Below are positions 16,879 through 31,072 of a DNA stretch of 64,000 bases, one piece after another; the first letter of the stretch is position 1; each line of letters begins with the position of its first letter. Source of the stretch: a bacterium. Its GTDB lineage: Bacteria; Desulfobacterota; Binatia; HRBIN30; CADEER01. The notes under the pieces were generated by a model, which saw only the letters and a program-made list of their open reading frames with translations, had not been told where the DNA came from and searched no databases. A program made the position numbers and the translations under genes. The DNA is taken from positions 2,628 through 66,627 of the forward strand of contig JANNRA010000112.1 of the NCBI GenBank assembly GCA_031401035.1. Direction: 5' to 3'.

Positions 16879-17525
16879 TGCGTCCGCGCCACGCCCGCGT
16901 CGAGCTCGCCCTGCACGAGCTCTCGCCGCGCGACGGAGCGCCGTTGCTGCTGCTGCACGGGCTCGGCGCGTCGTCGACGGACTGGGGCGAGCTGCCCGGC
17001 GCCTGGCCCGGGCCGGTGCTCGGCCTCGACTTCAGCGGCCACGGCGCCTCGCAGTGGCTGCGCGGCGGCGTCTATCTACCCGAGTTGCTGGCCGGCGACG
17101 TCGACGCGGCGCTGGCGGAGATCGGGCCGGCGCATCTGCTCGGCACCGGCCTCGGTGCCTACGTCGCGCTGCTTGTCGCGGGGGCACGCCCGGCGCTCGT
17201 GCCGGGCGCGCTGCTGCTACCCGGGCGCGGCCTTGACGGCGGTGGCGTCGAACCGGATTTTGATCGCCCGGCCCTGGTCTCGGCGACGCCGGCGCTGCAG
17301 CCGCGGTGGCCCGACGGCTGCGATCCCTGCTGCGCCATGCTGGAGTGCGATCCGCGTCCGCCGGACTACGCGGCGCGCTTCGCCGCCGCGGCGCGGCGAC
17401 TGGTGTTGTGCGAGGATGGCGAGGCGCGGCCGCCGTGGTGGGCGGCCGTACGCGACGCCGGTGCCGAGGTCGTGACCGGCGATGCGCGAGCCGCCCTGGC
17501 GCGGTTGCTGACTCCCTCTCCCTGA
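16878..17525 (+). CDS. alpha/beta-fold hydrolase, second short paralog
   Basis: Its ATG overlaps the upstream stop (TGATG). It carries LLLLHGLGASSTDW and a GTGLGAYVA nucleophile-elbow-like motif. Confidence 0.65.
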   Translation: MRPRHARVELALHELSPRDGAPLLLLHGLGASSTDWGELPGAWPGPVLGLDFSGHGASQWLRGGVYLPELLAGDVDAALAEIGPAHLLGTGLGAYVALLVAGARPALVPGALLLPGRGLDGGGVEPDFDRPALVSATPALQPRWPDGCDPCCAMLECDPRPPDYAARFAAAARRLVLCEDGEARPPWWAAVRDAGAEVVTGDARAALARLLTPSP

Positions 17526-17547
17526 TCGGCCGCAGGCCTGCTGTGCA

Positions 17548-17622
17548 GGGCGCCGCTGCGTCGGCGCCTGTGGCATCGGGCCGCGCTGGCCGCATCCAAC
17601 AGGCGCCGACGGAGCGGCGCCC
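17548..17622. repeat. palindromic MITE-like repeat, family B, intergenic copy
   Basis: GGGCGCCGCTGCGTCGGCGCCTGTGG....CAACAGGCGCCGACGGAGCGGCGCCC. A near-identical copy lies inside the alpha-2-macroglobulin gene at 26840-26920. Confidence 0.7.
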
Positions 17623-17646
17623 GCCAAGTGCATTGACCTGCGATCG

Positions 17647-18942
17647 CTACAGCGCGTCGCGGTTTACCAGGTTTTCCAGCGCCTCCTGGCGGCCCGAGCG
17701 CGGTTGCGGTTCGGGCGCCGTGAGTGCCTGGCGCTCGCAGTCTTCCAAGGTGCGCTCGCCGGCGAGAATGGCGCGTCCCGGCACGGTGTCCCAGCCGGCG
17801 TAACGCGCCTCGATGGCCCGCGCCAGATCGCCGCGTTCGAGCATGCGCGCGGCGCGCAGCAGCCCGCGCGCGACGGCGTCCATGCCGCCGATATGCGCGT
17901 GCACGAGGTCCTCCCTGTCGATGCTCTGGCGGCGCAGCTTGGCGTCGAAGTTGAATCCGCCGCTGCCGAGGCCGCCGGCCTGCAGGATGGTGTACAGCGC
18001 CAGGGCCGTCTCGTCCGGGCTGTTGGGAAACTGATCGGTGTCCCAGCCGTTCTGGGCGTCGCCGCGGTTGGCGTCGACGCTGCCCAGCAGCCCGTTTGCC
18101 GCCGCGTAGGCGAGCTCGTGCTGGAAGCTGTGGCCGGCCAGGGTGGCATGGTTGGCTTCGATGTTGAGCTTGATCTCCTTGTCGAGCCCGAACTCGAGCA
18201 GCAAGCCGTGCACGCTGGCGGCATCGCGGTCGTACTGATGCTTGGTCGGTTCCATCGGCTTCGGTTCGATCAGCAGCGTCCCGCCGAAGCCGCTGCGATG
18301 CTTGTGCTCGACCACCATCGACAGGAAGCGGCCGAGTTGGCGGCGTTCGCGGCCCAGGTCGGTGTTGAGCAACGTGTCGTAGCCCTCGCGCCCGCCCCAG
18401 AGGACGTAGTTCTCGCCGCCGAGGCGCTGCGTCACCTGCATCGCCTTGCGCACCTGCGCGGCGGCGTAGGCGAACACCGCCGGATCGGGATTGGTGGCGG
18501 CGCCGGCGGCGTAGCGGCGATGGCCGAAGAGATTGGCCGTCCCCCACAGCAGGCGCACGCCGCTGCGCGCCATGTGCGCCGCGAGGACGTCGACGATGCG
18601 GTCGAGGCGGTCGTTGGACTCCGCCAGCGTCGCGCCCTCGGGCGCCACATCGCGATCGTGGAAGGTGAAGAACGGCACCCCGAGGGTGGTGAACAGCTCG
18701 AATGCCGCCGCCGCCTTGCGCTCGGCCAGCGCCAGCGGCTCGCCGGCGCCGAACCACGGCCGATCGAGCGTCTCGGCGCCGAACATGTCGACGCCCGGCC
18801 AGCAGAACGAGTGCCAGTAGCAGACCGCGAAGCGCAGGTGCTGGCGCATCGTCTGGCCGAGCACGACGCGCTCGGCGTCGTACCACCGGAAGGCGAGCGG
18901 CGTGTCGCTGTCGGGACCTTCGTAACGGATCGGGTCGGGCAT
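17647..18942 (-). CDS. xylA: xylose isomerase
   Basis: Internal start [22 protein letters not shown], preceded by GGAGG. Conserved XylA blocks are present throughout. Confidence 0.9.
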
Positions 18943-22942: not shown

Positions 22943-25072
22943 TCAGCGGCCGCGGACGTCGAGTCCGGCGGTGGCCGCCACGGTGCCGGTGGCGTCGACG
23001 AGAGCGACGCGGTGGCGGCCGCGAGTCGGCGGCCACAGTACCATCCGTTCCGCGTCGCCGAGATCCTGGCCGTCGACCTGCCAGCGCAGGTCGCGCGCGT
23101 CCGCGGCCTCGAGGGCCAGGCGCTGCCGCGCCGCGCCGATCTCCGGATCGAGCGCGATGATGGTGCCGTCGGTCGGCGCCAGGATGCGCGGCGCGGTGGT
23201 CGGTGCGGCCGGCGCGCCCGACCCCGGCGCGGTGCCGGCGACGAACCACTCGTCGCCGACGCGCTCGAGGCCCGGCGGCGGCGCCGGCGGCGGACTCGGC
23301 AGGTCGCGGTGCAGCGCCTCCATGACCTCCTGCCAGATCGGCGCCGCGCCGCTGACGCCGCTGACGTCATGCATCGGCGCGCCGGAGAAGTTGCCGACCC
23401 AGACGCCGACGGTGAAGCGGCGCGAGAAACCGAGACACCAGTTGTCGCGCATGTCGGTGCTGGTGCCGGTCTTCGCCGCCGACCAGAAGCGTGTCGACAG
23501 GGGGCTCTCGAGTCCGAAGGTGACGGCGCGGCCGGCGCGGTCGGCGAGGATGTCGGCAACGATGAACGCCGCGGCTGGTGCCAGCACCGGTCGCGGCGCC
23601 GTCACGGCCTCGTCCGGGCGCAGCCGCAGCGGGCTCCAGGCGCCGCCGCTGGCGAGGACGCGATAGGCGCCGACGAGTTCCCACAGCGTCACGTCGGCTG
23701 AGCCCAACGCCAGCGCCGGACCGTACCAGCCGCCGCGGCGTCGCAGGCCGTCGAAGCCGAGGGCGCGCAGACGGTCGGCGAACGGGTCGGCGCCGAGCAG
23801 CTGCAGGGCACGCACCGCCGGCACGTTGAGCGAGCCGGCCAGGGCCGTGCGGACGCTGACCGGGCCGCGGAAGACGGCGTCGTAGTTGCGCGGTTGGAAG
23901 AGGCCGCCGGCGACGGCGATCTCCAGCGGCGTGTCGTCGAGTCGCGAGGCGGCGGTGAGTAGGCGTTGCTCGATCGCGGCGGCGTAGAGGAACGGCTTCA
24001 GCGTCGAGCCGGCCTGGCGGGCGGCGCGGACGCCGTCGACCTGCGCCGCGGCGGACAGGGCGCCGCTCGAGCCGACGTAGGCCAGCACGTCGCCGCTGCC
24101 GTTGTCGGCCACCAGCACCGCGGCGTCGCGTACGCCGCGCCCGTGCAGCGCCAGCAGATGGCGCTGGACGGCGTCGCGCGCCGCGCTCTGTACAGCGGCG
24201 TCGAGGGTCGTCGTCGTCGCGTCGCACGCGTCGCCCTCCGGCAGCAGGCGCCGCGCCAGGTGCGGCGCCTCGGCGCGGCGCGCCGGCAGGTGCGGTGTGA
24301 CGTCGATGACGCGGGCGATTGCGGCGTCGAGCGCCGCGGTGCCGGAACCGCCGTCGGCGCGTCGCAGGGCGGCGGCGCGGCGGGCGAGGGCGGGACGCTC
24401 GGCGTTGGGGGCACGCAGCAGTGAGGCGAGGACCGTCGCCTCGGCCGTGCTGAGGCCGTGCGGCGCCTTGCCGAAGAGCACCTCGGCCGCCGCCGCGATG
24501 CCCTGCAACTCACCGCGGAAGGTCACCAGGTTGAGGTAGGCGTCGAGGATCTCGTCCTTGCTCCAGATGGCCTCGAGTCGCCAGGCGGCGCGCATCTGGC
24601 GCCACTTCGCGGCGGCGCCGCGCGGCGCCCCCGGGCGGCGCAGGGACGGGTCGAGGAGCGCCGCCAGCTCCATCGCGTTGGTGCTGGCGCCGCGCGGCGC
24701 GCCGCCGCGCAGGCGCTGCCACGCCGCGGCGGCGACGGCGACGAGATCGACGCCGCCGTGGGTGTGGAAGCGGCGGTCCTCGGAGGTGAGCACGGCGTCG
24801 ATCAGCGCCGGCGAGACGGCGTCGAGGGGCGTCCAGGCGAGTCGCCGGCGGCGTTGGTCGACGCGGCGTTCGTGCAGCACGACGCCGTGCCGGTCGAGCA
24901 GCCGCGCGTCGGAGGGGCAGGCGGCGGCGCGGACGTCGGCGGCGGTGGGCGGATTGGGGACGTCGGGTTGCCACGCTATGGTAGCGAGCAGCGCCAGTAC
25001 GAGAAGTCCCCCAGCCGGGAGCGCGGGCGGCCCGCCCGCAGGCCAGATGACGGCGCGGCGGAGCCGCGCCAT
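22943..25072 (-). CDS. pbpC: penicillin-binding protein 1C (transglycosylase/transpeptidase)
   Basis: It has GT51 motifs (EDRRFHTHGGVD) and transpeptidase SxxK (GSTLKPFLYAAA). ATG start at MARLRRAVIW; the ORF track extends to 25129 through repeat copy 2. It is co-oriented with the upstream alpha-2-macroglobulin gene. Confidence 0.85.
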   Translation of the reverse strand: MARLRRAVIWPAGGPPALPAGGLLVLALLATIAWQPDVPNPPTAADVRAAACPSDARLLDRHGVVLHERRVDQRRRRLAWTPLDAVSPALIDAVLTSEDRRFHTHGGVDLVAVAAAAWQRLRGGAPRGASTNAMELAALLDPSLRRPGAPRGAAAKWRQMRAAWRLEAIWSKDEILDAYLNLVTFRGELQGIAAAAEVLFGKAPHGLSTAEATVLASLLRAPNAERPALARRAAALRRADGGSGTAALDAAIARVIDVTPHLPARRAEAPHLARRLLPEGDACDATTTTLDAAVQSAARDAVQRHLLALHGRGVRDAAVLVADNGSGDVLAYVGSSGALSAAAQVDGVRAARQAGSTLKPFLYAAAIEQRLLTAASRLDDTPLEIAVAGGLFQPRNYDAVFRGPVSVRTALAGSLNVPAVRALQLLGADPFADRLRALGFDGLRRRGGWYGPALALGSADVTLWELVGAYRVLASGGAWSPLRLRPDEAVTAPRPVLAPAAAFIVADILADRAGRAVTFGLESPLSTRFWSAAKTGTSTDMRDNWCLGFSRRFTVGVWVGNFSGAPMHDVSGVSGAAPIWQEVMEALHRDLPSPPPAPPPGLERVGDEWFVAGTAPGSGAPAAPTTAPRILAPTDGTIIALDPEIGAARQRLALEAADARDLRWQVDGQDLGDAERMVLWPPTRGRHRVALVDATGTVAATAGLDVRGR

Positions 25073-25103
25073 CCATTCGGAGCGGGCGGGCCGCCCGCGC
25101 TCC
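25017..25103. repeat. palindromic MITE-like repeat, family A, copy 2; contains the pbpC start codon
   Basis: Arms GGGAGCGCGGGCGGCCCGCCCGCA and GGAGCGGGCGGGCCGCCCGCGCTCC. The centre matches the reverse complement of the copy 1 centre. Confidence 0.75.
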
Positions 25104-25125
25104 AGGATTCGCGGCTCCAAGCTCC

Positions 25126-28100
25126 TCACGGCGCCACCTCAACGGCCTTGTTCGGGCTCTCGCCGAACATCTCCGGCGCGTAGAGGGCCTCGGCGCGCGT
25201 CGGCGGCAGGTCGAAGCGACCGCTCTGGTTCAAGCGCACATCGTACTCGACGCTCGTCCGCCCCTTGGGCAGGAACTGGAAGTAACCGCGGTAGGCGTCG
25301 AAACGGCGCTCGACGAAGTCCGGCGCTGCGACGTCGCTGCTGCCGCCGTTGGCGAGTTGGCTGTCGCGCGCCAGGCCAGTTCCGAGGTGCGAGGCGCCGG
25401 GGGGGATGGGATCGTCGAGCACCACCCAGGTCATGTCGCTCTGCGCCTCGACGTCGACGCGCACGCGCAGCCGGTCGCCGCGGCTCAGCCGGCCGACCTG
25501 GTGCGGATCGAGCGGCGTCACCGTCTTGCTGATGCGATAGCCGCTCGACAGCGGCGCACCGAGGGGAATCGCCGCGCGCGAGGTGACGGTGATCCACGGC
25601 GCGCCGGCGCCGCGCTGCTCGACCGTCAGCGTCGCCGGCGCCGCCGGCCAGGCGAAGCGAGCCGGGCCGCCCGGGGTCGGGGCCCACGCGAGTTCCTCGC
25701 TCGCGGTGCCGAGGCGCAGCGCCGTCACACCGCTGACCGGCGTCGCCTCGAACGCCGCGGCGAAGCGGCGCAGGGCCAGCACGCCCCAGGCATTGGCCAA
25801 CGTCGTGTCCCAGTGGCCGCGCCGTTGGCGCCCGAGGGCGCCGTGCAGCAGGCGTGCGGCGTCGTCCTTCCACAGGCCGAACTCGACGGTATGCAGCAGC
25901 AGGCGCACGGCGTTCTGGTCGGCCGAGGCCATCAACCACCACAGCCCGTCGCCGGCCTCGTCGGAGAAGCCCATCGTCGTGCCCTGCAGGTTCAGGCGGG
26001 CGCGGACGATCTGCTCCACCGCCGCCAGGCGCGCCGCGCGGTCGGGCAGCGTCGGCAGGCGCTGCAGGATGCTCCACCAGTCGAGCACCGCCGAGGTCGG
26101 CCACAGGTTGGGCTCGACGGAGATGCTGCCGAGCATGGCGGGATCGCCGGCGCCGAGTCGCGTCAGGGCGTCCAGGGCGGCGAGCTTACGCAGCGTCAGA
26201 TCGGGCGCGCCCAGGGGCGACTCGCGACGGATGCTGCCCTCGACGAAACCGCGCAGGCCGGCGATGAGCCGGTCGCGCGTCGCGGCGGGGATCTCCCAGC
26301 CGGCCGCCGCGGTGATGGAGACGACGTAGGCGGTGAGGACTTCGCTGCCGTGGCTGAGGGTCGGAAAGAACTTCAGCAGGCCGTCGCCGTCGAGGTACGA
26401 GGGCAGGGCGGCGGCGAGCGTCGTCCAGCCCGCCTGGTCGTCGAGGCCGACGCGGATCGAGGTCTGCTGCTCGAGGCATGTGTATGGGTAGCGGCGCAGG
26501 TAGTCGGCGACACCGCCGGCCGTACCGGCGAGCGAGGCGGCAGCAGCGACGACCAGCCCGCCGCGGCTCGGGAAGGCGTCGGCGGGGCGCGCCACCGGTA
26601 TGCGCAGCGGCTGGTCGGCGCGCAGCAGCGTCGCTTGCAGTGTGCGCACCGGTACCGCCTCGCGCACCTGCTGGGTGACGGCGAGGCGGTCGGCGACGCC
26701 GCCGGCGACGGCCTGCACGGTGTAGCGCAGCTGGTCGCCGTCGGCCGGGACGATGACCGGCCACTCGACGACGCGCGATTCACCCGGCGCGAGCGTCAGC
26801 GCCTGCGGCGCCAAAACCTGTTGCGGCGGCGTCTCCCCTGGAGGGCGGCGCCCCGTCGGCGCCTGTTGGATGGAGGCCGCCCCACCCGATGCAACAGGCG
26901 CCGACGGAGCGGCGCCCTCCAGGGACCCGGGTGCGGCGTCGGTTGCGGGCGATTCCACCGTCAGCGACACCTGCACCTCGAGCGGCCGATCGGTGGTGTT
27001 GCGCAGCGTGAACTGGGCCGGGAAGCGGTCGCCGTGGCGGACCAGCGGCGGCAGGCCGCTGAGCAGCATCAGTTCCTGCGTCGTGCGGATCTCGGTGGCG
27101 CCGCTGCCGAAGCGGCCGAGGCCGGCGGTGGCGACGGCGACGATGCGGAAGGCGGTGAGCGAGTCGTTGAGCGGCACCTCGACCGTGGCATGCCCCTGCG
27201 CATCGAGCGGCACGCGACCGCTCCACAGCAGCAGCGTGTCGAACAACTCGCGCGTCGCCTGCCGGCCGCCGCCGCCGCCTGCCGGCAGCGCCTTGCGGCC
27301 GTAATGGCGTTTGCCGATCACCTCGAGCTGCGCGGTGGCGGTGCGGACATCGTAACCGCGCCGCCCCATCATCGCCTCGAGCAGGTCCCAGCTGGGGTTG
27401 GGCGCCAATTCGAGCAGGCCCTCGTCGACCGCCACCAGCGCCACCTCGCTGCCCGGCGGCGGCGGGGCGCCGTCGCCGTCGCGCACCGCGACGCGCACCA
27501 CGGCGGTGTCGCGGACGCGATAGGTCGGCCGGTCGGCCTGCACGTCGACGCTGAGGGCGTGCGCGCGCCAGCCGACGCGGATCTCGGCGAGGCCGAGCTT
27601 GAAAGCCGGCTTGCCGAGGTCGACCATCGCCGTCGGCTGCGTGTCGGCGACGCGCCCGCGCACCGCCAGCACCGAGATGAATGTATTGGGCGCGTACGGC
27701 CCCAGCACCGGCACCTCGACGCGCGGCTCGCCGCCGCCGATCTGCAGCACGCGCGCCTCGGCGATGCCCTCGCGCTCCACCGTCACCAGCGCCGTGGCGC
27801 GCTGGAAGGGCATGCGCACCTGCAGGCGCGCCGTCTCGCCCGGGGCGTATTCGCGCTTCTCGGGCAGCACATCCATGCGGTCGGCGGCGTCGACGGCGAA
27901 GCCGCCCGGGTCGTCGCCGTCGACGTAGACGCTGCTGTGCGCCGCGGCGCCGCGGCCGGCGTCGTCGCGCACGCGCACCTGCAGGATGATCTCGCCGTCG
28001 GCCGGCGCTGCGGCGCGGCAGGCGAACAGGCCCTGCGCGTCCGTGGCGCCGGCGCAGACGCGCCCCAGCGGCGTCGTCTCTTCGACGTGCTCGTAGCCGT

Positions 28101-30903
28101 AGAAGCCGCCGACGAGGCGCTTGCGGTGCGAGTAGTAGCGGTGCCGGAAGGCGTCGACCTCCACCGCCACATCGGCCACCGGCCGGCCGCGCGTGTCGAG
28201 CACGGCGACCTTGGCGTCGAGGCCGTCGCGCTGCCCGGCCCAGTGTTCGGCGGCGATGCCGGGCAGCAGCGCCGCCGGCCACAACGGCGTCGTCGCCGCG
28301 GCGGTCTGTACCTCGCCGTTGGGGTCGCGGTACTCGATCTCGGCGACCAGTTCGCGCGGCGTCTGCACCGCCGGCAGGCCGCCGATCTCGGCCCGCGCCG
28401 TGCCGGCGGCGTCGAGCGTCAGCGTCTGCGTGCTCAGCACGGCGGTCGACTCGGCGCTGTCCGACGCCTGCTCCTCCGACTGGCGCTGGCGCACGACGCC
28501 TTCGCGCACGGCCCCGTTGGCGAAAGTGAACGACTCGAAGGCCGCGTTGCGCGGCGCCGCGCGCTCGCGCACCTGGGCGCGCAGCACCACCGGCAGCTCG
28601 CCGGCGGCGCCGCCGGCGAGATAGCGGACGGCGAGGTCGACCGGCGCGGAGGGGGCGGCGACCAGCGGCTCGGCCGGCAGTTGCACCGTCGCCTTCATCA
28701 GCGGCACGCGGAACTGCTCGACGCGGAAGCTGCCGGCGGTGACCTCGCGGCCGGCGGCGTTGGCCATGGCGATCTCGTACTGGCCGAGCTTGGCGCCGGG
28801 CGGGATCGGCCAGTCCTGGGTGGCGAGGCCGTCGCCGTCCCAGCTGAGCGGGAGGTCGTAGGTCTCGCTGCTGCCGAGGTGGCGCACGATCGCCTTCACC
28901 GGCCGCGCCTCGCCCTCGACCGCGGCGAAGCCGGCCAGCGTCTGGGCGCGCAGGACGTGCTTCATGTGCACCGTGTCGCCGGCGCGGAAGAGGGCGCGGT
29001 CGAGGATGGTGTGCGCCAGCACCGGCGCGTCGTCGCGCTCGGCGGGCAGATTGAAGCGCCACGCTTCGAGGCCGCGCCCCCAGGACGAGTGGACGAAGCC
29101 GAGGTCGCCGCTGGTTTCGGCGGTGACCAGCAGGCCGCCGTCGAGGCCGGTCAGCGCCGCGGCGGAGTAGTGGTCGCGGTAGTCGATGCCGGTGAAGTCC
29201 TTGTAGCGGTCGCCGTCGGGACAGTACTTCGCCGCGCCCGGCGCCGGCAGGCCGGTGAAGCGCGCCAGGCCCTGCGCGTCGGTGACGCCGCTGGCGAGCA
29301 CCGCGCCGCTGCAGTCCTGCACCGCGACGCGCGCGCCGGCAACCGGCGCCGCCGCGTCGAGCGTCGTCACCCAGGCCAGCGCGTTCTCGCGCGCCCACTT
29401 GAAGTGAACCGCCAGGTTGGTGACCAGGGCACCGCCCGGCACGAACAGCGGCTTGTCCTCGCCGAGCAGCGCGGCACCGAGGCGCGGGCTGCTGAGTTCG
29501 ACGAGATAGAGGCCGGGCCGGTCGAACGGGATGCCGACCACCTGCATCGTCTCCGGCCCGTCGGGCTGCGGCAGCGTGAAGCTGCGCGACGCGGTGCCGG
29601 CGGGCAGGTCGGCGAACATCGAGCGGTCGCGCCGCGCCGCCGCCAGGCGGTGCAGCCAGGGCAGCACGTCCTCGGCACGCTCGACGCGTGCGACGCTGCC
29701 GCCGAGGCGGGCGTACAGGTCCCGCACTGTTGCCGCCCAGCCGTCGGGGCGCTCGCGCGTCGCCCGCACCTCCTGGCCGCGCAGGTCGGGCTCGAGGTTG
29801 CGGATGGTCACCGGCAGGGCCGGGTCGGCCTCGGCCTCGAGCAGGCCGAAGCGAGCGGCGAACCTGGCCAGCGGCGGGTAGGGGGCGGTCTGCACCGTCG
29901 TCGGCGTGTCGGCGAGGGCGCGACCGGCGTCGTCGCGCAGATCGCTGGGCAGGGCGAGGCGCAGGGTGGTCGAGGCGGGGAAGGGCGGCGCGAACTCGAC
30001 GGCCGAGACGAAGTCGCTCGGCGTGTCCGCGGCGATCGGATCGCGGCTGGTGCCCTCGTCGCCGACCAGGCGCACCTGCCGCGCGGTCTCCCACGCCACC
30101 GGGGCGCTGAAGCGCAGCGCGATCGGCGTCAGCGGCGTGCAGTCGGCCTTGGCGTTCTCGCGCTCGCAGGTCACCTCGGCGGTGAAGCGCGGGCGGGTCT
30201 GGTAGGACAGCACCTGGTCGGCGGCGGTGGCGATGCCGGACGGGCTGGCGATGCCGGCGCCCCACACCAGGCGCACCGCGGCGGCGTCGGGGAAGGTCTG
30301 CCGCGCCGCCAGCAGCACGAACGGCGGCGTCGGCTTCATCCAATAGGGCAGGCCGGCGACGACCGCCTCGCGCTCGGGGCCGTCGAGGAGGCGGACGCCG
30401 ACGCGTTCGCTCAGTCCCGCCACCTCGAAACCGGCGCGGGCGAGGATCGAGTCCGGCGTCGCCTCGCCGTCGAGTTGCAGGACGAAGACCTGCTGCGCGT
30501 CGATGCGGTCGCTACCGTCGCCCGGCACCGCCGCGGTGATCGCCGGTCCGCCGGTGGAGAAAGCGAAGCGCGCCGGCGTCACCGCCGCGCCGGCGCGGCT
30601 CTTCAGGTCGGCGCGCAGCGCGAAGGTGCAGCGGGTGCCGGCGGGCAGGTCGCGCTCGAAGTCGTAGGCCCAGGTGCGTACGTCGACCCAGCGCGCCGTG
30701 CCCGGCACCGCGCACTCGACGGCGAACGGCGCCGCGACGTCGCGCAGGTCGCCGAAGGGCACCATCGGCGCCGAGAACACCGCCGTCGCCTGGCGCACCT
30801 GCTTCACCTCGCCCTGCGGCGCGAAGCGCTCCACCGTCACCGCCGCCGGCGCCGCCGTCGCGGCCCCCACCATCATCAGGATCACCGCCGCCAGTTGCCG
30901 CAT
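25126..30903 (-). CDS. bacterial alpha-2-macroglobulin (YfhM-like), secreted, about 1926 aa
   Basis: Start at MRQLAAVILMMVGAATAAPA (signal peptide; no lipobox Cys). It carries the thioester motif CLEQ (RYPYTCLEQQTS) and has MG-domain architecture. Confidence 0.9.
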   Translation of the reverse strand: MRQLAAVILMMVGAATAAPAAVTVERFAPQGEVKQVRQATAVFSAPMVPFGDLRDVAAPFAVECAVPGTARWVDVRTWAYDFERDLPAGTRCTFALRADLKSRAGAAVTPARFAFSTGGPAITAAVPGDGSDRIDAQQVFVLQLDGEATPDSILARAGFEVAGLSERVGVRLLDGPEREAVVAGLPYWMKPTPPFVLLAARQTFPDAAAVRLVWGAGIASPSGIATAADQVLSYQTRPRFTAEVTCERENAKADCTPLTPIALRFSAPVAWETARQVRLVGDEGTSRDPIAADTPSDFVSAVEFAPPFPASTTLRLALPSDLRDDAGRALADTPTTVQTAPYPPLARFAARFGLLEAEADPALPVTIRNLEPDLRGQEVRATRERPDGWAATVRDLYARLGGSVARVERAEDVLPWLHRLAAARRDRSMFADLPAGTASRSFTLPQPDGPETMQVVGIPFDRPGLYLVELSSPRLGAALLGEDKPLFVPGGALVTNLAVHFKWARENALAWVTTLDAAAPVAGARVAVQDCSGAVLASGVTDAQGLARFTGLPAPGAAKYCPDGDRYKDFTGIDYRDHYSAAALTGLDGGLLVTAETSGDLGFVHSSWGRGLEAWRFNLPAERDDAPVLAHTILDRALFRAGDTVHMKHVLRAQTLAGFAAVEGEARPVKAIVRHLGSSETYDLPLSWDGDGLATQDWPIPPGAKLGQYEIAMANAAGREVTAGSFRVEQFRVPLMKATVQLPAEPLVAAPSAPVDLAVRYLAGGAAGELPVVLRAQVRERAAPRNAAFESFTFANGAVREGVVRQRQSEEQASDSAESTAVLSTQTLTLDAAGTARAEIGGLPAVQTPRELVAEIEYRDPNGEVQTAAATTPLWPAALLPGIAAEHWAGQRDGLDAKVAVLDTRGRPVADVAVEVDAFRHRYYSHRKRLVGGFYGYEHVEETTPLGRVCAGATDAQGLFACRAAAPADGEIILQVRVRDDAGRGAAAHSSVYVDGDDPGGFAVDAADRMDVLPEKREYAPGETARLQVRMPFQRATALVTVEREGIAEARVLQIGGGEPRVEVPVLGPYAPNTFISVLAVRGRVADTQPTAMVDLGKPAFKLGLAEIRVGWRAHALSVDVQADRPTYRVRDTAVVRVAVRDGDGAPPPPGSEVALVAVDEGLLELAPNPSWDLLEAMMGRRGYDVRTATAQLEVIGKRHYGRKALPAGGGGGRQATRELFDTLLLWSGRVPLDAQGHATVEVPLNDSLTAFRIVAVATAGLGRFGSGATEIRTTQELMLLSGLPPLVRHGDRFPAQFTLRNTTDRPLEVQVSLTVESPATDAAPGSLEGAAPSAPVASGGAASIQQAPTGRRPPGETPPQQVLAPQALTLAPGESRVVEWPVIVPADGDQLRYTVQAVAGGVADRLAVTQQVREAVPVRTLQATLLRADQPLRIPVARPADAFPSRGGLVVAAAASLAGTAGGVADYLRRYPYTCLEQQTSIRVGLDDQAGWTTLAAALPSYLDGDGLLKFFPTLSHGSEVLTAYVVSITAAAGWEIPAATRDRLIAGLRGFVEGSIRRESPLGAPDLTLRKLAALDALTRLGAGDPAMLGSISVEPNLWPTSAVLDWWSILQRLPTLPDRAARLAAVEQIVRARLNLQGTTMGFSDEAGDGLWWLMASADQNAVRLLLHTVEFGLWKDDAARLLHGALGRQRRGHWDTTLANAWGVLALRRFAAAFEATPVSGVTALRLGTASEELAWAPTPGGPARFAWPAAPATLTVEQRGAGAPWITVTSRAAIPLGAPLSSGYRISKTVTPLDPHQVGRLSRGDRLRVRVDVEAQSDMTWVVLDDPIPPGASHLGTGLARDSQLANGGSSDVAAPDFVERRFDAYRGYFQFLPKGRTSVEYDVRLNQSGRFDLPPTRAEALYAPEMFGESPNKAVEVAP
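26840..26920. repeat. family B palindromic repeat inserted in-frame inside the alpha-2-macroglobulin coding sequence
   Basis: GGAGGGCGGCGCCCCGTCGGCGCCTGTTG...CAACAGGCGCCGACGGAGCGGCGCCCTCC. It is translated as ..LEGAAPSAPVASGGAASIQQAPTGRRPPGE.. with no frame break. Confidence 0.7.
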
Positions 30904-31072
30904 GGGGACGTTTGTCCACTGCCGCCGGTGAATCCGCAAGCTCCTCGCGGGTGGAATCCGCAAGCGGCTCGCCCGCGAAGGCAGGGACCTGGAGACGGAG
31001 GCTAACGCTGGGCCGATTGGGATCCGCGCACGGCCGCGCAATCCGAATTACAGCGGGAATTCATACTGCCGC

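Follow-up and report, generated by a model that had tools for sequence, protein, structure and literature searches.

The gene for a bacterial alpha-2-macroglobulin (A2M) in the 64,000-nucleotide stretch of DNA analysed here (the window; contig JANNRA010000112.1, assembly GCA_031401035.1) carries a palindromic doublet of a multicopy repeat family. The doublet is translated in frame, is missing from the nearest relative of the gene, and falls at a loop site of the protein. It is probably a dimer of repetitive extragenic palindromic (REP) sequences, laid out like a REPIN (REP doublet forming hairpin), that inserted in A2M recently and is tolerated there as a loop. The host belongs to an uncultured lineage whose best protein matches in a homologue search are named Candidatus Binatia.

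A palindromic doublet in the A2M gene

The A2M gene (25126-30903, minus strand) is an intact open reading frame (ORF) of 1925 aa. A preliminary description of the sequence had reported a near-perfect palindrome within it, translated without interruption, and both points hold. Two inverted arms of 36 nt (26836-26871 and 26889-26924), 92% complementary and 17 nt apart, make up a palindrome of 89 nt (26836-26924), which the A2M ORF reads through as ...GSLEGAAPSAPVASGGAASIQQAPTGRRPPGE... A profile of 19 family doublets recognises an 83-nt core here, consisting of two inverted units and a spacer (26839-26921, unstranded; nhmmer, E 7.5e-19). The unit that the ribosome meets first (unit 1, 26889-26921, minus strand; CTGGAGGGCGCCGCTCCGTCGGCGCCTGTTG) has a 7-bp stem, GGCGCCG/CGGCGCC, with the loop CTCCGT and is translated as LEGAAPSAPV; unit 2 (26839-26871, minus strand), inverted with respect to unit 1, deviates from the family consensus at two positions and is translated as IQQAPTGRRPP.

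The palindrome shares its arm with a second one that lies beside the xylose isomerase gene xylA. The 23-mer common to the two, CAGGCGCCGACGGAGCGGCGCCC, occurs four times in the window at three or fewer mismatches, where dinucleotide-preserving shuffles give an expectation of 0.03; four matches were reached in none of 100 shuffles. As a single strand the A2M palindrome folds with -83.6 kcal/mol as RNA (z -8.6 against shuffles) and with a z of about -10 as DNA. The RNA hairpin has a nearly continuous stem of more than 30 bp, and no T-run follows it. Rfam, run over the whole window at gathering thresholds, finds two tRNAs and the signal recognition particle RNA only and matches neither palindrome copy, and the family profile finds no copies in the window beyond these two.

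The filled site has an empty counterpart. A locus from the metagenome scan, L069, taken from a 248,660-bp contig, aligns collinearly with 7.1 kb of the window (93-96% DNA identity), and its A2M gene (94% DNA identity) is shorter by exactly 90 nt, or 30 codons, at the insert. L069 reads ...SPATDAARGSLEG-LPTT-APQALTLAPG... where the window reads ...SPATDAAPGSLEG-AAPSAPVASGGAASIQQAPTGRRPPGETPPQQVL-APQALTLAPG...; the lineage-specific segment, AAPSAPVASGGAASIQQAPTGRRPPGETPPQQVL in place of LPTT, thus occupies 26813-26913 (minus strand), as placed by the blastn break points between the two loci and by DNA and protein alignments. Only three internal indels, of 1, 4 and 30 codons, separate the two genes over 1760 aligned codons. 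An insertion of roughly 27 residues had been proposed beforehand; orthologues do lack the segment, but the net difference from the nearest one is 30 codons. The pair amounts to a built-in control, with a filled and an empty site in genomes that are 94% identical in DNA.

More distant proteins agree. The preliminary description had noted that an equivalent segment in orthologues from distant taxa would mark it as ancestral protein sequence. Alignment of 27 distant homologues (41-68% identity; the database matches are all fragments of fewer than 700 residues) shows a short variable loop in every one, the next closest at 67-68% identity included, where the window has about 50 residues. None of 54 metagenomic relatives has a segment as long as that of the window. 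At the L069 site itself structure is ordinary (z +1.3, against -8.6 at the filled site) and similarity to a unit is at background level, being equalled by 18.5% of background windows, with no nhmmer match there. A footprint or decayed unit at this site is accordingly unsupported, and we take it as a true empty site.

The left boundary of the segment shares CCCTGGA(A/G)GGC with the element end. Native A2M sequence beside the insert (26790-26835; GGCGCCGCAGGCGCTGACG on the coding strand) is like the arm part CAGGCGCCGACG at 11 of 12 positions and is also found in the empty-site orthologue. This likeness, which is statistically non-significant, and the CTGGA(A/G)GGC at the left junction hint at insertion of the element into sequence similar to its own arm.

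With the homologue alignment as input, AlphaFold2 models residues 1235-1434 (counted from the Met) as a confident beta-sandwich. The strands that flank the insert (E74-83 and E127-137 of the model) lie in blocks with a mean pLDDT (predicted local distance difference test score) around 90 or higher, and model residues 84-126 are all coil, with block means down to 52-64. Foldseek matches the model to the MG6-MG7 fragment of complement C3, C4 and C5 (MG, macroglobulin domain). When aligned with Escherichia coli YfhM, the insert comes right after the strand ...DITNLTDKPQKLNVALT, about 100 residues past the bait segment, which is intact, and about 120 before the thioester motif CLEQ (26467-26478, minus strand). 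The bait of bacterial A2M is part of MG8, the counterpart of human MG6 (PMC4498604). This puts the insert outside the bait, in MG9, which is equivalent to eukaryotic MG7 and is placed between the bait-carrying MG8 and the module of CUB and thioester (TED) domains; MG9 moves with the TED arm on activation (PMC4498604). The 30 residues, rich in Ala, Pro, Gly and Ser, are predicted from the model to form a disordered, exposed loop between two beta-strands of MG9, in line with the earlier proposal of an added loop in the MG-domain region.

The host protein is of the YfhM/ECAM type: it has the MG series, a bait-region domain, the CxEQ thioester motif and a C-terminal MG10/CTMG (Pfam bMG3, MG2, A2M_BRD, A2M and bMG10), and it matches the structures of E. 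coli YfhM. Comparison with L069 (dS 0.105, dN/dS 0.28) shows that the gene is under purifying selection. Directly downstream lies a gene for a PBP1C-type penicillin-binding protein (22943-25129, minus strand; Pfam Transgly, Transpeptidase and BiPBP_C), in the same gene order as in a related locus, L123; these coordinates are those of the longest ORF, and the true start may be later (the gene model of a relative has 701 aa). A frame of 1882 aa (25357-31005, plus strand) is open antisense to the whole of A2M. It looks like the usual stop-poor antisense of GC-rich DNA and not like a gene; at the element site the frame plot assigns coding to the minus strand.

The repeat family and its copies

Scanning one genome per prokaryotic species with the arm pattern gave at least 68 loci. 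Among the matches listed, which come mostly from two uncultured metagenome-assembled genomes (MAGs), CBFGUK01 and CAVWTK01, there are about 20 doublets and about 45 singlets, with the termini TGGAGGGCGCC...GGCGCCCTCCA. The consensus doublet reads CTGGAGGGCGCCGCTCCGTCGGCGCCTGTTGGAT, then about 17 variable nt, then ATCCAACAGGCGCCGACGGAGCGGCGCCCTCCAG. Core length is 83 nt in 11 of 19 doublets, 82 in five, 81 in two and 84 in one. The consensus unit of about 33 nt folds into a 7-bp stem (GGCGCCG/CGGCGCC) with a 6-nt loop (CTCCGT; -9.8 kcal/mol, z -2.4), and the consensus arms hold no stop codon in any of the six reading frames. Across the 19 doublets the arms are kept at sequence level while the spacer drifts. 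On its 5' side the unit is flanked by NTGGAG, the first base being C, T or G across copies, with no GTAG; the tetranucleotide CGTC is invariant (within CTCCGTCGG) and straddles the boundary of loop and stem in the 7-bp hairpin instead of standing outside that hairpin. In all copies inspected the bases flanking a doublet differ on the two sides, with no consistent direct repeat and none at the A2M site. A profile search of protein databases with the element peptide gave one match, a 54-aa ORF on a 914-nt contig.

Single units are also found elsewhere. Near-identical ones (TGGAGGGCGCCGCGCCGTCGGCGCCTG) occur in several Verrucomicrobia MAGs (L015:846-872, from the Chthoniobacterales MAG DASXIK01, as well as L004, L008, L026, L054, L058, L061 and L065), and from the sequences at hand the family arm appears to be shared across phyla. 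In CBFGUK01 many single units (in L009, L021, L055, L045, L067, L047, L056 and L016) adjoin short tandem repeats of 7-8 nt, such as GGTTAGGG-like repeats, CCTAACAG, GTGACCA/G, and GTGCTGAC or ACGTCAGC. Clusters of more than two units exist too: at L028:38-147, in CAVWTK01, a third arm (..CCCTCCACCGAACAGGCGCCGACGGAGCGGCGCCCTCCAGGC), in direct orientation, comes right after a doublet.

Are the copies genic or intergenic? Stop-free spans across a copy were not accepted as a sign of coding; GC-rich DNA has many long open frames, which makes such spans uninformative, and we therefore used GC content by codon position (frame plot) together with Pfam, with the two copies in the window as controls. 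Of 70 copies among the matches listed, 50 are intergenic, 14 lie at locus edges and six have the same strand and phase on both sides, so that of the 56 that could be classified 50 lie between genes. Among copies that have clear coding sequence on either side, about six lie between converging genes, five or six between genes in the same direction and one between diverging genes. The family is genuinely multicopy and mostly intergenic, and the genic/intergenic sorting suggested in the preliminary description agrees with its reading.

Confirmed genic copies number about three of the 70 sampled. Besides A2M, they are an 81-nt doublet at L048:6242-6322 (CAVWTK01, contig_10185), in frame as residues 287-314 of a 571-aa ORF, and a single unit in L015 (Chthoniobacterales MAG), in frame as residues 193-202 of an RlmI-like protein, between its PUA and SAM-methyltransferase domains (Pfam). 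The L048 doublet links an MbnB/TglH/ChrH domain (residues 21-280) to a DUF2063 domain (323-416) (Pfam). Genes for these two domains are often separate neighbours, and a gene fusion here may have been brought about or stabilised by the element. The reading frame is (L/V)EGAAPSAPV in each of the three genic copies; translated in its two remaining frames, that arm gives WRAPLRRRL and GGRRSVGAC, rich in Arg and Cys. A selective filter on reading frame is therefore plausible, and the three cases are suggestive of one. The frame test also picked out three more candidates, L050, L051 and L028; in these the element stands at the extreme N-terminus, ahead of all Pfam domains, and is probably upstream of the true start codon; they were left out of the genic count.

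The second copy in the window (17544-17626 by the profile core, unstranded) has arms of 35 nt (17548-17582 and 17588-17622) that are 86% complementary. It had been placed upstream of xylA; it is indeed an intergenic family copy, but it lies 3' of xylA (17647-18942, minus strand), whose stop at 17647 faces it. On the other side a hydrolase-like gene converges on xylA (16887-17525, plus strand, start approximate; 86% identity to residues 5-212 of a 231-aa gene of L123). A relative at 99% identity (L125, GCA_031413995.1) has the copy at the same site. In one at 97% (L126, GCA_031397705.1, JANNMH010000065.1) the contig ends inside the element (1617-1635), as is expected of a multicopy repeat in a short-read assembly, and in MAGs of this sort A2M is probably broken in two at the insert. 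The repeat breaks short-read assemblies, and in annotation or structure prediction it could pass for native protein sequence.

In two relatives at 93% identity (L123 and L124) there is no element, and xylA and the hydrolase-like gene, 121 nt apart in the window, overlap by 20 nt. An apparent synteny break at this site was dismissed when protein comparison showed the neighbour to be orthologous, with a different tail only: after the shared ...AALARL the C-terminus diverges from L123, the last 19 residues being replaced by five. The arrival of this 'intergenic' copy thus reshaped the end of the hydrolase-like gene. Neither of the two copies in the 64 kb predates the separation from the L069/L123 lineage, suggesting that the family has been active recently.

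Origin of the insert

The most probable account, as stated at the outset, is insertion of a REP-dimer (REPIN-like) doublet. Two inverted units of about 33 nt around a variable spacer of about 17 nt make up an 81-84-nt doublet, laid out as in a REP dimer or REPIN. Once the lineage had parted from that of the 94% relative, such a doublet would have arrived in A2M, in the MG9 loop between two beta-strands, and would be translated as a 30-residue disordered loop that the fold tolerates. The A2M frame stayed open because no frame of the arms contains a stop and the length changed by 90 nt net. That both doublets in the window are absent from relatives at 93-94% suggests whole doublets as the mobile units. 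By analogy, spread could follow a single-strand, hairpin-dependent route of the RAYT (REP-associated tyrosine transposase) or IS200-IS605 type, or use another enzyme in trans. The A2M insert itself would be a neutral or nearly neutral passenger and not an adaptation.

Several observations weigh against this account. Neither junction is clean: at A2M, 101 nt (26813-26913) stand against 11 nt in L069, and at xylA about 143 nt (17505-17646) against about 40 nt (L123:11277-11340). The 83-nt core alone would shift the A2M frame, which is kept by the net 90 nt; the extra 7 nt beyond the core lie in the GETPPQQVL stretch to the right of the element and either came with it or are a later frame-restoring change. 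Only one close orthologue of A2M, that of L069, enters the comparison, so that a deletion in its lineage is formally possible. A tblastn search with an approximate probe found no RAYT/Y1 transposase in the window and the fetched loci (935 kb), nor did a six-frame scan of the same 935 kb for the HUH...Y..NP motif. The units lack the terminal GTAG tag that RAYT-associated REPs carry according to passages of PMC3733652. We therefore use the term REP-dimer- or REPIN-like for the element and do not commit ourselves to a mobilising enzyme; the mode of movement is inferred. Finally, covariation analysis of the 19 doublets shows compensatory changes at none of 21 consensus pairs and so gives no support for a selected RNA structure; conserved arms and a drifting spacer with no compensatory pairs point instead to copying or to sequence-specific recognition.

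It is unlikely that the insert has been co-opted, whether as an extra protease-sensitive or interaction loop on MG9 or as an mRNA hairpin that regulates A2M and PBP1C by way of RNase III or a ribosome pause. Hairpins of such strength could be a substrate of RNase III or slow the ribosome, and the one at A2M (-83.6 kcal/mol, stem above 30 bp) is strong; no T-run follows it, however. The loop is predicted to be disordered and surface-exposed on a domain that is part of the mobile TED arm (PMC4498604), but the true bait about 100 residues upstream is intact. The three genic copies share one mild frame, which is equally explained by selection removing the two Arg/Cys-rich ones. Purifying selection acts on A2M, yet the insertion is young (a relative at dS of about 0.1 lacks it, as do all the other homologues examined), and published intragenic REPs are viewed, in passages of PMC3733652, as neutral decorations of loops and linkers.

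We think it slightly less likely still that the element is a classical miniature inverted-repeat transposable element (MITE), that is, a deletion derivative of an insertion sequence (IS) moved in trans by a DDE transposase and flanked by target-site duplications. Perfect terminal inverted repeats, a length of 81-84 nt and many, mostly intergenic copies would suit a MITE, as would the failure to find a RAYT in 935 kb, and the preliminary description had called the palindrome MITE-like. A multicopy inserted palindrome it is, but it is built like a REP dimer or REPIN: each arm forms a short stem-loop by itself, about 45 copies among the matches listed are single units and not full elements, and the spacer varies while the arms are conserved. 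No target-site duplication is visible, in that no consistent direct repeat stands beside the doublets, and in the fetched loci no pair of arms 0.7-2.5 kb apart encloses an ORF, the layout of a parent IS.

An ancestral segment, deleted from the L069 lineage by slippage or by hairpin-stimulated deletion, seems very improbable. Long perfect palindromes are described as deletion-prone in parts of PMC3733652, the element end has CCCTGGA(A/G)GGC in common with the left junction of the empty site, and the indel is unclean. Against this, all 27 distant homologues, those at 67-68% included, have short loops without related sequence, the L069 site is no closer to a unit than 18.5% of background windows are, and the copy beside xylA is absent from the same relative as well; moreover, the segment would still stem from the repeat family, at an earlier date. 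That a GC-rich coding sequence is palindromic by chance and only coincidentally like an intergenic one can be dismissed, common as short GC palindromes are in so GC-rich a genome, given the shuffles (four arm matches in 0 of 100), the fold z of -8.6 to -10, dozens of copies elsewhere with identical termini and the absence from the 94% orthologue.

A broader proposal is highly speculative, and we would be surprised if it proved correct: the family might be a tag-less REP lineage without a dedicated RAYT, its arm of about 27 nt near-unchanged between a Binatia-like lineage and Verrucomicrobia, whose (L/V)EGAAPSAPV frame is repeatedly recruited as a linker or loop, as in the MbnB-like-DUF2063 fusion and in a protease-accessible loop on the TED arm of A2M. 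A cross-phylum lineage of this kind would imply horizontal spread or recognition by a conserved host protein, and a recruited frame would mean that the A2M loop changes which proteases trigger or escape the trap.

Comparison with known systems

E. coli YfhM (ECAM) and Salmonella A2M (PDB 5a42, 4ziq and 4rtd) share with the window protein the set of domains, the CLEQ motif and the PBP1C neighbour. The extra 30-residue MG9 loop, predicted to be disordered, is absent in these solved proteins and in all homologues examined. A selfish palindromic repeat can thus add such a loop to a large multidomain protein without destroying it; all that a stop-free, GC-rich palindrome needs to survive in a gene is a loop that tolerates it and a net length that is a multiple of three.

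Among repeats, the Correia elements of Neisseria are MITEs with a TA target duplication, an integration host factor (IHF) site and promoter elements. Like them, the present element is a small palindromic repeat that would be co-transcribed and form long RNA hairpins, and it has rare in-frame genic copies; the TA duplication, the IHF site and the promoter elements were not seen here. The Rickettsia palindromic elements (RPEs), reportedly described by Ogata et al. in 2000, are said to be the classic selfish palindromes lying in frame in protein-coding genes. RPE-1 is about 100-150 nt long, and the host is an AT-rich obligate intracellular bacterium with many genes affected. The A2M insert resembles RPEs as an in-frame palindrome in a conserved gene that lengthens the protein by tens of residues where the fold allows it, and it too belongs to a family with intergenic copies. 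It differs in its GC-rich environmental host and in that genic copies are a small minority; the likeness is one of behaviour only, and kinship in sequence is unlikely.

REP dimers, bacterial interspersed mosaic elements (BIMEs) and REPINs are closer. Passages of PMC3116915 (Bertels & Rainey 2011) and PMC3733652 describe them as inverted REP doublets and attribute their movement, tentatively, to RAYT tyrosine transposases that act on hairpins of single-stranded DNA. The present family has their 7-bp GC-rich stem-loops, paired in inverted orientation around a spacer (17-30 nt in these systems) to give one long hairpin. Its unit falls within the 20-40 bp and 6-9-bp stem given for REPs in PMC3733652, and its 19 doublets of 81-84 nt each have two inverted units forming one hairpin, as REPINs do (PMC3116915); no target-site duplication of the kind that flanks MITEs is visible. 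As in the REPs treated in PMC3733652, singlets occur beside doublets, conserved arms go with a variable spacer, copies are many and mostly intergenic, 3' ends of converging or same-direction genes are favoured, and rare copies lie in frame in loops or linkers. In contrast to those REPs there is no terminal GTAG (or GTGG) tag, and CGTC occurs only across the loop/stem junction. The same source, in the parts concerned with CGTC REPs, gives them no dedicated transposase and treats RPE-4 and RPE-6 as members (PMC3733652).

According to passages of the same survey (Di Nocera et al. 2013, PMC3733652), intragenic REPs occur in several species, more than half of them being dimers or grouped repeats that encode 20-30 residues; Opitutus terrae and Rickettsia conorii have the most of them, and flexible linkers or loops are suggested as their possible place in proteins. 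The A2M insert is most like the GTAG REPs of O. terrae, which are dimers inside ORFs, add 20-30 residues and are judged to be in flexible linkers or loops (PMC3733652). Those REPs, unlike the present family, carry a GTAG/GTGG tag and are linked to RAYTs, as far as these passages go (PMC3733652). That O. terrae is verrucomicrobial is of note here, since loci of Verrucomicrobia MAGs contain near-identical single units of the present family, one of them in frame in a methyltransferase. The unit and peptide sequences of the family were not found in the supplementary text of the 2013 survey, and A2M is not named as a REP host gene in its searched passages and supplement text (PMC3733652).

The case raises no new question on REP biology or on A2M function. 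In-frame palindromic repeats are already known from the RPEs of Rickettsia and from O. terrae, and the A2M insert adds one more, with a filled and an empty site to compare; it extends the phenomenon of RPEs and intragenic REPs to a protease trap of the periplasm and to an uncultured lineage about which little is known.

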